From positions 1 through 59,277 of the forward strand of contig JACPQN010000015.1 of NCBI GenBank assembly GCA_016190485.1: a stretch of DNA of 59,277 nucleotides, given 5' to 3'. The stretch is from Chloroflexota bacterium (GTDB lineage: Bacteria > Chloroflexota > Dehalococcoidia > SHYD01). Below, piece by piece: positions 22,303-45,987 of this stretch. Positions within the stretch are counted from its first letter, which is position 1; every line of letters starts with the position of its first letter. The translations under genes were made by a program, and so were the position numbers. The notes under the pieces were generated by a model. That model worked only from the letters and a program-made list of their open reading frames with translations. It had not been told where the DNA came from and did not search any database.

Positions 22303-22344
22303 GTAAGGCGACTTACAGACGGCGCTATCATCTTCGCCTACCCT
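22303..22344 (+). promoter_or_regulatory. candidate Crp/Fnr-family box with class II promoter spacing
   Basis: GTA-AGGCGACT-TAC (22303-22316), N22, then TACCCT (22339-22344). Confidence 0.6.
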
Positions 22345-22402
22345 GGGAGTACACGTGCCCTGCACGCCTGCCAGGCTGCAGGAGTCTTACCCAAGGAGGA
22401 CG

Positions 22403-22966
22403 ATGATGGAGCAAGCCCTGGAAAGAAAAGCAGCCAGGTTGTGGCTGCTGGGGACCATCGTAGCGGCGCTGTTGGTCTCAGCGTGCGCCCAGAGCGCGGG
22501 CGCACAGCAGGCGGGCGGCGACAAGGACAGGGAGATCGCTGCCCTGCGAGACCAGGTGGCCGGGCTTCAGCAAGATAGCCGATTCTGGAGCCAGCTCGCT
22601 GGCGCGCTCAAGCCAGTGGAGATGGCGAGCATGACTGACCACCGGGCCTACATGTTGCCCAGCGGCGCTGTCATCGCCCTCCATTTCGATAATCTGAAGC
22701 TGGACCAGGCCAAGAACCTCAACTGGGTCGCCCTGGGGATTCCCGGCGCCTTCACCAAGGCGGACCAGGAGCGGGTGGAGGGCCAGTTCGGCAAGGGCTT
22801 CACCCACTTCCACGATATGAAGAACGACACCCATGGCGGAAAGCCCGGCGCCGAAGGGGTCTGGTTCGTCCACATGGCCGTTCGAGACTTCGACTCTCCC
22901 ATGTCCGGCGGTGGCGTGAAAGCAGGGGTTGATGGTAAGTTCATGCCGACGCCTCCGTCTCAATAG
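22403..22966 (+). CDS. His/Met-rich lipoprotein of unknown function
   Basis: AAGGAGG RBS; lipobox LVSA-C; coiled coil; MTDH, LHFD, FTHFHD, THGG and WFVHM motifs. Confidence 0.8.
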   Translation: MMEQALERKAARLWLLGTIVAALLVSACAQSAGAQQAGGDKDREIAALRDQVAGLQQDSRFWSQLAGALKPVEMASMTDHRAYMLPSGAVIALHFDNLKLDQAKNLNWVALGIPGAFTKADQERVEGQFGKGFTHFHDMKNDTHGGKPGAEGVWFVHMAVRDFDSPMSGGGVKAGVDGKFMPTPPSQ

Positions 22967-22976
22967 CGGAGCACCG

Positions 22977-23012
22977 CTCACCCTCTCCCTTCTTTCCGGG
23001 GGAGAGGGTGAG
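22977..23012. repeat. CCCTCTCCC...GGGAGAGGG hairpin repeat
   Basis: CTCACCCTCTCCC...GGGAGAGGGTGAG; related sequence at ~41230-41300. Confidence 0.6.
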
Positions 23013-23067
23013 CGAATCTCAGGGACTGAAGGTCGCTGATGGTAGGGAGCATCGAGAAGTGAGAGCC

Positions 23068-23220
23068 ATGTGGGGGATCAAGGACGTTCAGAAGGCGGGT
23101 CTCTGCCGCTACTGACCATCAAGCTGGCTGCTGGGGCTAGCAGTCTTGCTGGTCTACGACAGTCTGTTCCTGGCGCGACAGGCGATTCGAAAGGTGACGG
23201 CCCTGCTTGTACCGCGATAG
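23068..23220 (+). CDS. candidate small membrane selenoprotein (CxxU)
   Basis: MWGIKDVQKAGLCRY-U(TGA 23113-23115)-PSSWLLGLAVLLVYDSLFLARQAIRKVTALLVPR*; SECIS-like hairpin directly 3' of the UGA; alternative GTG starts at 23059 and 23008. Confidence 0.55.
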
Positions 23221-23253
23221 TCGGCGGCGAGGCGGCGGGACAACCCCCGCACG

Positions 23254-23487
23254 TTAGAGGCCCAGAAGCTCACTCAGGCGTGCTCGGTCGAAGCCGATGA
23301 TCACCTCGCCGTCGATGACGGTGGTGGGAGTGGCGCGTGACCGCAGCGCAATGAGCTCCCGCAGCAGCGCTCGGTCCTTGCCGATGTCCTTCTCTACAAA
23401 GGGGACCCGGTGTTGAGAGAGAAACTCTTTCTCAGCATGGCAGGACGCTCAGCCCGGCTGGGTGTAGATCGCGACTTCCTGAGCCAA
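23254..23487 (-). CDS. glutaredoxin/NrdH-like selenoprotein (UxxC)
   Basis: MAQEVAIYTQPG-U-ASCHAEKEFLSQHRVPFVEKDI...ATPTTVIDGEVIIGFD (77 aa); TGA at 23451-23449 occupies the first Cys position of CxxC; missed by the ORF track. Confidence 0.9.
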
Positions 23488-44327: not shown

Positions 44328-44349
44328 AGACCCCTACCTCTGACGCCGC

Positions 44350-45093
44350 GTGGAGCCGGAAGAGTACGAGACCATCTACCGCCTGGAGGCGTCCCACTGG
44401 TGGTACGTGGGCATGCGGGACATCTCCCTGGCGCTGCTGGAGGGTGTGCTCCCGCGGCGGGAGGGCCTCTCGATCCTGGATGCGGGCTGCGGCACCGGCG
44501 GCATGCTGCTGGCCCTGGCCCGCTACGGCCCAGTGGTGGGGCTGGACTTCTCGCCCCATGCCCTGGCCTTCTGCCGCCGGCGCCGCCTGAGCCGGGCCCT
44601 CCAGGGCTCCGTGGTAGAGCTGCCTTTTCGGGACGGGGCCTTTGACCTGGTGACCTGTTTTGACGTGCTCTACCACCTGGGCGTGGCCGATGACGCCGCG
44701 GTCCTGACGGAGTTCAGCCGGGTGCTGCGGCCCGGCGGCCACCTGCTGCTGCGGCTGCCGGCCTTCGAGCTGCTGCGCTCCGCCCACGATGCCATGGTGC
44801 ACACCCGCCACCGCTACACCCGGGGAGAAGTCCGGGCCAAGGTCGCGGCGGCCGGTTTCCAGGTCCGCCGTCTCACTTATGCCAACACGCTGCTCTTCCC
44901 CGTGGCCGCCGCGGCGCGGATCCTTCAGCGGCTCCTGGGCCGGGCAGAGGAACGCGTCTCTGACGTGCGAGCGGCGTCGCCCCTGGTAAACACGCTGCTG
45001 CGGGCGCCCCTGGCCCTGGAGGCCCGGCTGCTCCCCAAAGTCCCGCTGCCGCTGGGCCTCTCGGTGGTGTGCCTAGCGCAGAAACCAGGGTAA
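44350..45093 (+). CDS. class I SAM-dependent methyltransferase
   Basis: HWW, ILDAGCGTG, LPF.D..FD and H..RY motifs. Confidence 0.9.
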   Translation: MEPEEYETIYRLEASHWWYVGMRDISLALLEGVLPRREGLSILDAGCGTGGMLLALARYGPVVGLDFSPHALAFCRRRRLSRALQGSVVELPFRDGAFDLVTCFDVLYHLGVADDAAVLTEFSRVLRPGGHLLLRLPAFELLRSAHDAMVHTRHRYTRGEVRAKVAAAGFQVRRLTYANTLLFPVAAAARILQRLLGRAEERVSDVRAASPLVNTLLRAPLALEARLLPKVPLPLGLSVVCLAQKPG

Positions 45094-45106
45094 CCGCATG
45101 GCGTGA

Positions 45107-45352
45107 TCAGGGCTCGATACCCAGCTTCCGCGCCAGGGCGGCATTCGATGGCTCCACCAGGACGGACCCGTCTTCGAACACCAGCGTCGGGATAATTCTG
45201 CGGCCGCCGTTTACCTCGAGCACGTATCGGGCAGCAGTCGGGTCCTCCTCAATGTCAATCTCAACGAATGGGAAGCCGTGCTGAGTGAGAAACCGCTTGG
45301 CGCGGCGACAGTCCGGACACCAACTCGCGCTGTACATGGTGATCGCTGCCAC
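45107..45352 (-). CDS. mycoredoxin/glutaredoxin-like protein (CPDC)
   Basis: MY...WCPDCRRAK and NGG.R.IPT motifs; GTG start after GAGGAGGT. Confidence 0.9.
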   Translation of the reverse strand: MAAITMYSASWCPDCRRAKRFLTQHGFPFVEIDIEEDPTAARYVLEVNGGRRIIPTLVFEDGSVLVEPSNAALARKLGIEP

Positions 45353-45433
45353 GTGTTCTACCTCCTCATGCTGAGTGTTCACGATTCGTGATTCAGCATA
45401 TTCAAAGGATACCAGCGGCAATCCTGAGAGATT

Positions 45434-45475
45434 GTGGGCCAGCTTACATTCTTTCGCGAACTGGCGGAGTACCTT
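45434..45475 (+). promoter_or_regulatory. candidate Crp/Fnr-family box with class II promoter spacing
   Basis: GTG-GGCCAGCT-TAC (45434-45447), N22, then TACCTT (45470-45475). Confidence 0.55.
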
Positions 45476-45507
45476 CAAGACAAGCTACCAGGGGGAGGTA
45501 CAGAGCA

Positions 45508-45987
45508 ATGTCCTACAGTCGAGTCATCGTAGCGGGACTCATCGCCAGCATGGTGATGGGCATGTGGGAGATGGTGGTAGAGCAACTGGTGGGAGGCAAC
45601 GGCTTCTGGTCTCCGGTGACCTATATCGCGGCGACCGTCTTGCGGGACTATCAGCAGGTCGGGACTCCCGTGCCCTTCGCCGCCCTCCCCGTGGCCTTGG
45701 GGTTGATGGCCCATATGATGAACTCCGTCATCCTGGCGGCGGCGTTCGCCCTCATAGCTGGTCGCGTGCATGGCTCTCTGCAAGGTTCGATCAGCCTTGG
45801 GGCGGGGTTCGGCGCGGCGGTGATGCTCCTGATGTGGTTCCTGGTGTTGCCCGTGGCCGACCCGGTGATGCTCCGCTTGAACCCGGTCAGCTTCCTGGTC
45901 GCCCATATGATGTGGGGCGCCGCCCTGGGGCTCCTGCTTGAATGGACGCCCGGCCTGCGCCACACGCTGCGGAGCGCTCCCGCTTAA
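45508..45987 (+). CDS. four-TM Met/His-rich membrane protein
   Basis: GGAGGT RBS; MVMGMWEM motif and two AHMM motifs inside TM segments. Confidence 0.8.
   Translation: MSYSRVIVAGLIASMVMGMWEMVVEQLVGGNGFWSPVTYIAATVLRDYQQVGTPVPFAALPVALGLMAHMMNSVILAAAFALIAGRVHGSLQGSISLGAGFGAAVMLLMWFLVLPVADPVMLRLNPVSFLVAHMMWGAALGLLLEWTPGLRHTLRSAPA

Follow-up and report, generated by a model that had tools for sequence, protein, structure and literature searches.

The locus analysed here raises the question of whether three similar sequence boxes are operators of one Crp/Fnr-family regulator encoded in the same stretch and, if so, what this regulator would sense and control. The stretch (hereafter the window) comprises the 59,277 nucleotides of contig JACPQN010000015.1 from a Chloroflexota bacterium of the Dehalococcoidia (GCA_016190485.1), and is contig C140 of a 145-contig, 2.89-Mb assembly with 66% G+C and 83.6% completeness. 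In what follows, G000 denotes the present genome, other G numbers the genomes of relatives, C numbers contigs and L numbers loci. An earlier note, made from the letters of the window alone, had taken the boxes for an autoregulated Crp/Fnr-type regulon joining selenoproteins with His/Met-rich envelope proteins. We put at roughly 0.6 the probability that the boxes are operators of the protein encoded at 23513-24205, and that this protein is an autoregulated, non-cAMP activator of a regulon for thiol/selenol redox and envelope stress.

A palindrome upstream of the regulator's own operon

The three boxes were found where the earlier note had placed them, with identical sequences (Table 1). The distances of 22, 23 and 22 nt that it had given between the boxes and a TA-N3-T hexamer hold when measured from where the 14-bp GTA-N8-TAC core ends, and do not hold when measured from the ends of the 18-mers. 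The second box precedes the predicted operon of the regulator gene (crp), which runs from a gene for a small thioredoxin-fold protein (trx) through crp to a gene for a predicted glutaredoxin-like selenoprotein (grx).

Orthologues of the regulator were compared on 80 public contigs (39-61% identity), of which 77 are from named Chloroflexota metagenome-assembled genomes (MAGs), two from Acidobacteriota and one unclassified. An unbiased enumeration of dyads in the orthologous upstream regions returned GTA-N8-TAC in 33 regions and GTAA-N6-TTAC in 23. TGTA-N8-TACA was also tried as the motif; it had 10 distinct sites in the genome versus about eight by a rough chance estimate, and was replaced by GTAA-N6-TTAC. 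When called with at most one mismatch and 20-260 bp upstream of the operon start, GTAA-N6-TTAC is found in 36 of the 80 loci (29 of the 38 with trx-crp and seven of the 42 with crp only). Its perfect form occurs 23 times in the 18.6 kb of upstream windows versus three times in the other 731 kb, a 300-fold density.

The spacing of these sites is exact to the base pair. A TAnnnT hexamer begins 36 nt past the start of the core (22 nt after its end) in 29 of the 36 orthologous sites and at offset 35 or 37 in none of them, and 22 of these 29 promoters have the extended form TGnTAnnnT. With the hexamer at its predicted position of -12 to -7, the centre of the palindrome falls at -41.5, the canonical class II position of the activators CRP, FNR and NtcA. 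The class II geometry put forward in the earlier note thus recurs, with predicted -10 boxes, in most of the orthologous promoters.

A site was also observed upstream of crp or trx in the closer relatives G005, G009, G016, G036 and G059, and in G030 crp is immediately preceded by a perfect TGTA-N8-TACA palindrome. Among five distant genomes, the strict pattern matches the own trx-crp promoter in all five, plus one other place. Since other genomes keep the site in front of the trx-crp operon to which the regulator belongs, autoregulation appears well founded, and with it the view of the boxes as a Crp/Fnr-type regulon. In several loci of the distant genomes (among L156, L158, L163, L166, L169 and L177), start codons lie 6-12 nt past the predicted -10 box, which suggests leaderless mRNAs.

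A genome-wide scan and the predicted targets

The 36 orthologous sites, which all come from other genomes, were turned into a symmetrised 24-bp matrix, and this was used for the genome scan that the earlier note had proposed. Among 2,890,953 positions, site 1 ranks 2nd, site 2 3rd and site 3 118th. Twelve matches reach at least 16 bits, whereas 10 first-order Markov genomes average 1.8 (maximum 3); at least 19 bits is reached by four, versus 0.2 (maximum 1). The 34 matches of at least 13 bits (68 strand-sites) have a TAnnnT 36 or 37 nt past the core start nine times; of the other 63 offsets examined, one (offset 15) has 4 and the rest have 0-2. Taken together, ranks, Markov nulls and offset profile make a chance similarity of the boxes unlikely. 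The strong sites thus exceed background and the motif is kept in orthologues, as the earlier note would have it.

When the threshold was lowered to 9.5 bits and a hexamer was required at offset 35-37, 14 strand-sites were retained, 10 of which form a coherent set; in 11 of the 14, TAnnnT lies 22 or 23 nt past the core, the other three being the low-scoring matches on C51, C77 and C132. Sites 2 and 3 have a correctly spaced TAnnnT on both strands. Support for site 3 as a putative operator is this two-strand geometry, together with its targets and synteny, rather than its matrix score. None of the predicted -10 boxes of the present genome has the extended TG, and several are poor (TACCCT, TACCTT, TAGAGT), which fits dependence on an activator. 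Exact spacing, canonical position and these weak, TGn-less boxes together argue for activation.

Target genes were assigned from open reading frames (ORFs) and Pfam matches; the labels of a GC3-based gene caller were left unused, as it covered 81% of the genome, miscalled the strand of trx and missed the low-GC stretch of C131. The predicted targets are the regulator's own operon (the Trx-like CxxC protein, the regulator and the selenocysteine (Sec) glutaredoxin), three further WCPDC glutaredoxins, a peroxiredoxin, two small zinc-finger or zinc-ribbon proteins, an HD-GYP membrane protein, an extracytoplasmic His/Asp-rich lipoprotein (lipoH) and a Met/His-rich DUF6789 protein, the last possibly with a downstream, probable GRDB-like selenoprotein and a DUF3179 protein. 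The target list of the earlier note was therefore incomplete: the regulon would extend to contigs C131, C5 and C2, and within the window the WCPDC glutaredoxin and the HD-GYP gene had been missed. The glutaredoxin at site 3 is 59% identical to its paralogue on C131, and of the C131 protein's four closest paralogues (47-100% identity), three have a site.

The unifying feature of these predicted products is thiol-disulfide chemistry, as represented by one Trx-like and four Grx-like proteins along with a peroxiredoxin. Selenium, which the earlier note had put in this place, does not fit it, since a homologue of the Sec-glutaredoxin was found in none of the 80 orthologous loci. Pointers to a selenium-specific role are the Sec-glutaredoxin itself, the probable GRDB-like selenoprotein, the DUF3179 family, the neighbourhood of selB and the methyltransferases; as no Sec-glutaredoxin homologue was found in the orthologous loci, such a role has no direct support.

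The association of the regulator with lipoH and DUF6789 was also observed in other genomes, through sites or synteny, in agreement with the earlier note. The gene order in G016 is site, trx, grx, crp, site, DUF6789; G059 has site, trx and crp, with two copies of lipoH 4 kb off; and G009 has crp, site and lipoH. Relatives of crp adjoin lipoH in G009, G030, G036, G049 and G059. A strict search of G009 for a site with its -10 box gave five matches versus none for the reversed control. One lies at the crp gene of G009 and one next to another Crp paralogue; the other three are perfect sites in front of genes for a DUF6789 protein (Pfam 41.3 bits), a protein with a weak, below-cut-off match to GRDB, and a small Cys-rich peptide. 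In G005, crp stands back to back with a gene pair for a radical-SAM protein and a methyltransferase; these are 71% and 41% identical to their C131 counterparts, which are found behind the top-scoring site of the present genome.

In the distant genomes, where 30 loci were inspected, one-mismatch sites precede DUF3179 lipoproteins in three of the five genomes and DUF547 proteins in three of the five, and a molybdopterin oxidoreductase is divergent from trx in one. Tables in two papers list DUF3179 as a predicted UxxC/T selenoprotein family (PMC9312934, PMC13188914), and plant class IV glutaredoxins are described as having DUF547 fused to GRX domains (PMC13621322). Thiol/selenol redox chemistry, in the cytoplasm and outside it, appears as the shared theme of the targets.

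Three side observations concern the scan. The Grx-like genes on C24 (~29452) and C66 (~23090) have 12.8- and 11.3-bit matches directly past a TATAAT or TACAAT box and about 30 nt before the coding match, a geometry unlike class II that could reflect repression or chance. A possible case of horizontal acquisition is the stretch 9000-15000 of C131 (L111), which bears the top-scoring site together with the radical-SAM and methyltransferase genes and the Prx/Grx pair: its G+C is 52-61% versus 66% for the genome, and it abuts a DDE_3 transposase ORF (14165-14848, minus strand). Finally, positions 4-27 of the window and 79-102 of C119 are mutual reverse complements with 16.1-bit matrix matches, apparently a contig-end repeat or an unjoined overlap.

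Table 1. Boxes, putative -10 hexamers, genes and further predicted operators. Coordinates without a contig name refer to the window.
Feature	Coordinates	Strand	Remarks
Chromate-transporter homologue	20818-22038	+	Directly upstream of site 1
Site 1, 18-mer GTAAGGCGACTTACAGAC	22303	+	Sequence checked; predicted target lipoH
Site 1, core GTAAGGCGACTTAC	22303-22316	+	Perfect GTAAG-N4-CTTAC palindrome; 20.9 bits, rank 2
Putative -10 TACCCT, site 1	22339-22344	+	22 nt past core; site centre ~-41.5
lipoH, His/Asp-rich lipoprotein	22403-22966	+	187 aa; lipobox LVSAC; family without assigned function
Hairpin, 17-bp stem	22975-23014	+	Directly 3' of lipoH stop; -35.6 kcal/mol, z -5.2, 0/200 shuffles as stable
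CRYU ORF	23068-23220	+	In-frame TGA at codon 16; unsupported as gene
Putative glutaredoxin-like selenoprotein (grx)	23254-23496	-	U-A-S-C; TGA at codon 15 of translated stretch; last operon gene
Crp/Fnr-family regulator (crp)	23513-24205	-	230 aa; cyclic-nucleotide (cNMP)-binding fold + HTH_Crp_2
Small thioredoxin-fold protein (trx)	24222-24503	-	CPGC; first operon gene
Putative -10 TAGAGT, trx-crp-grx	24515-24510	-	23 nt past site 2 core
Site 2, 18-mer GTAGGCCGACTTACAGAC	24535-24552	-	Reverse complement of these positions; sequence checked
Site 2, palindrome (tc)TGTAAGTCGGCCTACA(ga)	24539-24552	both	Common to two divergent promoters; 19.3 bits, rank 3; predicted targets trx-crp-grx and HD-GYP gene
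Putative -10 TATGCT, HD-GYP gene	24575-24580	+	22 nt past site 2 core
Membrane protein, C-terminal HD-GYP-type (HD_5) domain	24677-26218	+	Divergent from trx; Pfam HD_5 2.1e-36
Glutaredoxin WCPDC	45107-45352	-	Pfam PF00462 1.3e-15; divergent from DUF6789
Putative -10 TATCCT, glutaredoxin	45411-45406	-	22 nt past site 3 core
Site 3, 18-mer GTGGGCCAGCTTACATTC	45434	+	Sequence checked
Site 3, core GTGGGCCAGCTTAC	45434-45447	both	Left half degenerate; 9.9 bits, rank 118; predicted targets glutaredoxin and DUF6789
Putative -10 TACCTT, DUF6789	45470-45475	+	22 nt past site 3 core
Met/His-rich DUF6789-like membrane protein	45508-45987	+	Pfam DUF6789 18.3 bits, below cut-off
GRDB-like protein	46263-47045	+	In-frame TGA 46788-46790; Pfam GRDB 7e-11
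DUF3179 protein	47060-48256	+	Pfam 2.9e-111; 15 nt past GRDB-like gene
selB	48497-50350		
Predicted operator, 25.2 bits (top match)	C131:14105	-	61-aa protein with two C2H2-type fingers, then radical-SAM + methyltransferase genes
Predicted operator	C131:10258	both	AhpC/TSA peroxiredoxin; WCPDC glutaredoxin then Trx-like ORF
Predicted operator	C5:34769	-	Glutaredoxin fused to Trx-like domain
Predicted operator	C2:14410	-	69-aa CxxC...CxxC protein

The regulator and its neighbours

The regulator matches the Pfam domains PF00027 (65.1 bits, cut-off 27.5) and PF13545 (59.4 bits, cut-off 27) and reaches no NCBIfam equivalog cut-off. Its best NCBIfam row is NtcA (TIGR03697, 74.3 bits versus a cut-off of 244.95), with CRP (NF008732) at 69.6 bits versus 266 and FNR (NF008365) at 40.6 bits versus 228. 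The best sequence match in the PDB is Thermus CRP 4ev0 (3.9e-24) and the second NtcA 2xgx (3.8e-21). The FGE motif is kept and the Arg that binds cAMP is missing, as had been noticed before: 'YDSF' of the regulator aligns with 'ERSA' of 4ev0, which places Asp at the position of the Arg that contacts the cAMP phosphate. Across the family, the consensus at the region of CRP R82-S83 is M(H/Y)(N/D)(T/S)F. The regulator clade is mainly found in Chloroflexota and is predicted not to bind cAMP in the manner of CRP.

The recognition helix reads RETATL, and its R, E and T are near-invariant across the 80 aligned sequences (the window protein and 79 orthologues). In the same alignment, Cys is present at position 110 in 74 of the 80 sequences and at position 113 in 75, forming a CxxC in the sensor domain, immediately in front of the helices C-terminal to the beta-roll. 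The window protein has two cysteines, Cys42 and Cys113, and an SxxC at 110-113; Ser110 occurs in six of the 80 sequences, the window protein included, and four of these six combine Cys42, Ser110 and Cys113. Position 100, beside the CxxC, is His in most orthologues and Tyr in the window protein.

Other HTH_Crp_2 matches are also present in the genome (five places). The protein on C7 is the sole other full-length Crp paralogue above the cut-off; it keeps the Arg-Ser of cAMP binding and has a RESVNR helix, and so looks like an ordinary cAMP-CRP. Within 3 kb of its gene no operator was found (best match 5.0 bits). An identical 14-mer core, GTAACGAAAGTTAC, was observed at C98:103 and C221:409-451 of G016 and at C86:4862 of G009. 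The copy in G009 lies 3' of a different Crp paralogue (31% identical) and 5' of a small ORF whose translation looks DUF2249-like. GTAACGAAAGTTAC is probably the operator of a sister paralogue.

Trx-fold genes lie directly upstream of crp in 38 of the 80 loci, and CxxC is present in 36 of the 39 rows of their alignment (the 38 loci plus the window protein). The window Trx scores below cut-off with both Pfam Thioredoxin_3 (20.1 bits) and the NCBIfam MJ0307 family (26.8 bits). Its true start is probably Met10 (ATG 24476), because the annotated ATG at 24503 would coincide with the predicted transcription start and Met10 has AAGGA upstream. At the other end of the operon, the U-A-S-C protein, whose in-frame TGA falls at the CxxC position, scores 62.2 bits versus 88.55 for the YruB family and 52.4 versus 66 for the Uxx-star family of NCBIfam, both below cut-off. 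HD homologues were found 3.5 kb downstream of crp in five of the 80 loci (L050, L052, L053, L058 and L076).

The lipoprotein LipoH has no Pfam or NCBIfam match. Its 209 homologues are mostly from Chloroflexota, SAR202 and Dehalococcoidia MAGs, and none of the 120 listed has a Pfam domain. Nine residues are invariant (H80, H94, D96, H135, H137, D138, D142, H144 and H157), which suggests a metal centre. With an AlphaFold2 (AF2) model (pLDDT 82.8), Foldseek returned nothing from the PDB at E<=0.001, and a wide VIA-align search gave a best Z of 4.0, so that LipoH is left without an assigned fold. A kinship of LipoH to the DUF3179 lipoproteins was considered and rejected (weak blastp match of 3e-4, hhalign probability 23%).

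The earlier note had also counted among the targets a CxxU peptide, the CRYU ORF downstream of lipoH. This ORF has no homologue among the loci compared or elsewhere in the genome, and a very stable hairpin separates it from lipoH, so that we dropped it from the list. The folds after the three in-frame TGA codons are no stabler than shuffled sequences (z -0.23, -0.26 and 0.02), and no selenocysteine insertion sequence (SECIS) could be demonstrated there. At the site 3 locus, the GRDB-like ORF reads through its TGA into an ORF of the same frame (…LLVPV-U-P…); it probably encodes another selenoprotein and is possibly co-transcribed with the DUF6789 gene.

Further side observations concern the surroundings of these genes. 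Peptides of 43-46 residues with CxxC...CCGQPMKEV lie beside lipoH in L137 (G009:C136) and L140 (G021:C40), the one in G009 being preceded by an 18.4-bit site; their assignment to the desulfoferrodoxin N-terminal domain was rejected (E 0.08-0.11, below cut-off). In G049, lipoH is downstream of a classical thioredoxin (WCMPC). Words of the type GTCCTGAGC...GTCGAAGGG are repeated between genes at 22160-22215 and 46008-46080 of the window, at 5650-5700 of L113 (G000:C2) and upstream of the C66 Grx-like gene. This element stands directly upstream of site 1 and also between the DUF6789 and GRDB-like genes, and looks like a REP-like dispersed repeat. Rfam gave no family in the window, and ARAGORN no tRNA.

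A proposed redox-responsive activator among other readings

In the reading that we prefer, the regulator would recognise (T)GTAA-N6-TTAC(A). This palindrome has its centre 41.5 bp, or in one case 42.5 bp, before the predicted start in promoters with a -10 and without a -35 box, a position at which a class II dimer would touch RNA polymerase and activate. Under thiol, oxidative or electrophile stress, cysteines of the sensor domain (the CxxC in most family members, SxxC and Cys42 in the window protein) would be oxidised or modified, and this would switch the dimer into its DNA-binding, activating form. The co-transcribed Trx-like protein would then re-reduce the sensor, giving positive autoregulation with a built-in reset. 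For the window protein we may speculate that a Cys42-Cys113 or intersubunit switch, or a sulfenate, takes the place of the CxxC disulfide. We infer DNA binding by the regulator, activation, the nature of the signal and the Trx reset from the sequences compared.

A bolder version, which we advance tentatively and at less than even odds, would make this clade a new class of Crp/Fnr sensor, in which a thiol switch has been installed in a former cAMP fold and is reset by an always co-transcribed Trx-fold protein. The regulator would then be the master oxidative- and thiol-stress activator of many Chloroflexota, coordinating the Trx, Grx and Prx proteins of the cytoplasm, of which some are selenoproteins, with the extracytoplasmic LipoH, DUF6789, DUF3179 and DUF547 proteins in envelope redox defence.

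Several observations weigh against the reading of the boxes as operators of a thiol-responsive activator. Because the window protein has Ser at position 110, a mechanism based on the CxxC cannot apply to it unchanged. The -41.5 placement depends on -10 boxes that are themselves predicted, site 3 has a low matrix score, and the occurrence of GTAACGAAAGTTAC beside another Crp paralogue in G009 indicates that related paralogues may share similar motifs. In the scan, one correctly spaced match (C131:12316) falls within the radical-SAM ORF, the three further correctly spaced matches on C51, C77 and C132 are low-scoring, and the fourth WCPDC glutaredoxin, on C98, has no site (best match 5.0 bits). 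In the five distant genomes, matches with one mismatch number 35 versus 61 for a reversed-pattern control, and a large regulon may therefore be lineage-specific. A correctly spaced site was found upstream of lipoH in only two of ten foreign loci (G009 and G083); in G178, G030, G077 and G059 the sites near lipoH either lack the matching geometry or lie 0.2-1 kb off, in G021, G049 and G036 nothing of at least 8.5 bits stands upstream, and in G206 the sole match, of 9.2 bits, is on the downstream side of lipoH. Likewise, DUF6789-like homologues were found in only three of 301 genomes of the class (E<=1e-8), and the copy in G076 is without a site.

The same regulon could be governed by a metal (Cu, Zn or another thiophilic metal or metalloid) held by the sensor Cys and His residues, rather than by thiol oxidation. 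The nine-His/Asp lipoprotein, the Met/His-rich membrane protein and the zinc-finger or zinc-ribbon proteins among the targets would suit such a signal, as would the chromate-transporter gene directly upstream of site 1 and the His100 that most orthologues have beside the CxxC. However, most predicted targets are Trx, Grx and Prx oxidoreductases and not exporters, chaperones or storage proteins, no metal efflux ATPase or CopA/CopZ-type gene was found downstream of any examined site, and the window regulator has lost both Cys110 and His100 (to Ser and Tyr), which would damage a metal site. A correctly spaced site in G016 precedes a CopD-family protein, but it has the GTAACGAAAGTTAC core and may belong to another paralogue. 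We regard a metal signal as improbable; for Cu, the candidate named in the earlier note, the observations point neither way.

It also seems unlikely to us that the regulator is a repressor that blocks the -35 region of extended -10 promoters until stress releases it. Promoters of the TGnTAnnnT type can work without an activator, which lends weight to the 22 such cases among the 29 orthologous offset-36 promoters, and the matches at the C24 and C66 Grx-like genes stand past a -10-like box, in a repressor-like position. Yet the hexamer stands at offset 36 in 29 of the 36 sites and never at 35 or 37, and such exact spacing points to a need for contact with RNA polymerase and not for occlusion. 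Moreover, -41.5 is where class II activators canonically sit, and the promoters of the present genome lack TGn and have poor -10 boxes. The idea that some other factor binds the palindromes, or that the likeness of the three boxes is coincidental, is very improbable: binding by this regulator is deduced from sequence, the genome has other HTH_Crp_2 matches, and similar GTAAC-N4-GTTAC cores lie beside another paralogue in G009, but the site accompanies the regulator's own operon across dozens of genomes, the sole other full-length paralogue above the cut-off is of the canonical cAMP-CRP type with no such site nearby, and the matrix ranks, Markov nulls and offset profile argue against coincidence.

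A thiol-responsive, autoregulated activator is thus the reading that we retain, and it would offer several things. Chloroflexota are abundant in subsurface, marine and wastewater communities and mostly uncultured, and to our knowledge almost none of their transcription factors has been characterised. The analysis provides a testable operator, promoter architecture and target list for a widespread regulator clade, and a pointer to non-cAMP, probably thiol-based sensing by a Crp/Fnr fold that has a thioredoxin of its own as partner. It gives a first functional handle, in the context of thiol/selenol redox, on the lipoH family, DUF6789, DUF3179 and DUF547. If the Trx-reset circuit is true, it would be a compact, portable module for redox-responsive expression.

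The earlier note did not recognise the system as described, and the literature searched likewise gave no account of the clade, the operator or the regulon (subscription journals and supplementary tables lie outside its coverage). A term search of two Crp/Fnr surveys (PMC8510549, PMC3590769) gave no occurrence of Chloroflexi, thioredoxin or GTAA in the text covered; their supplementary Tables S4/S6 (PMC8510549) and S1 (PMC3590769) may list members.

Among known systems, NtcA of cyanobacteria shares with the present regulator the superfamily fold, a GTA-N8-TAC core, the 22-nt spacing to the predicted -10 box and, as predicted here, autoregulation and independence from cAMP. It differs in the recognition helix (R-V-T-x-x-R, or R-V-T-V-T-R as aligned, versus R-E-T-x-T here), with Val in NtcA and Glu here at the position of CRP Glu181. 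Moreover, the operator here extends to GTAA-N6-TTAC, the targets are thiol-redox and not nitrogen-assimilation genes, the sensor has CxxC or SxxC, and no PipX or 2-oxoglutarate context was seen. The cAMP-CRP proteins (E. coli CRP; Thermus TTHA1437, 4ev0) are similar in the cNMP fold with FGE, the Arg-Glu of the helix and the class II geometry predicted here. In place of their phosphate-binding Arg-Ser, however, the window protein has Asp-Ser and the family His/Tyr-Asn/Asp-Thr/Ser, Leu, Gln or Thr stands in for Arg185 as third recognition residue, and the half-site is TGTAA, not TGTGA.

FNR is defined by four Cys ligands of a [4Fe-4S] cluster, three grouped at the N-terminus and one central, whereas the regulator here has only Cys42 and Cys113. 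A further parallel is FLP of Lactobacillus casei and FlpA/B of Lactococcus, Crp/Fnr proteins with few cysteines for which thiol redox sensing without [4Fe-4S] and a link to oxidative stress have been proposed. A reversible disulfide that controls DNA binding belongs to the FLP picture; for the present regulator, the analysis covered the conservation of the Cys residues. Gram-positive FLPs are described as having two Cys, and L. casei Flp as possibly acting without an Fe-S cluster (PMC5039431). The FLPs differ from the present regulator in the positions of their cysteines (N-terminal and central) and in their operator, they are not known to have a conserved Trx partner gene, and the best NCBIfam and PDB matches of the regulator here are not FLPs.

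The proposed circuit resembles the feedback of OxyR with Grx1/Trx, where the oxidised sensor induces Trx, Grx and Prx and a product of the regulon reduces the sensor. OxyR belongs to the unrelated LysR family, however, and here the gene for the proposed reductant lies within the regulator's own operon; the likeness is a circuit analogy only, which we infer throughout. Taken together, the predicted architecture is a known one, that of a Crp/Fnr class II activator with an NtcA-like operator, whereas the sensor, the Trx partner and the content of the regulon differ.

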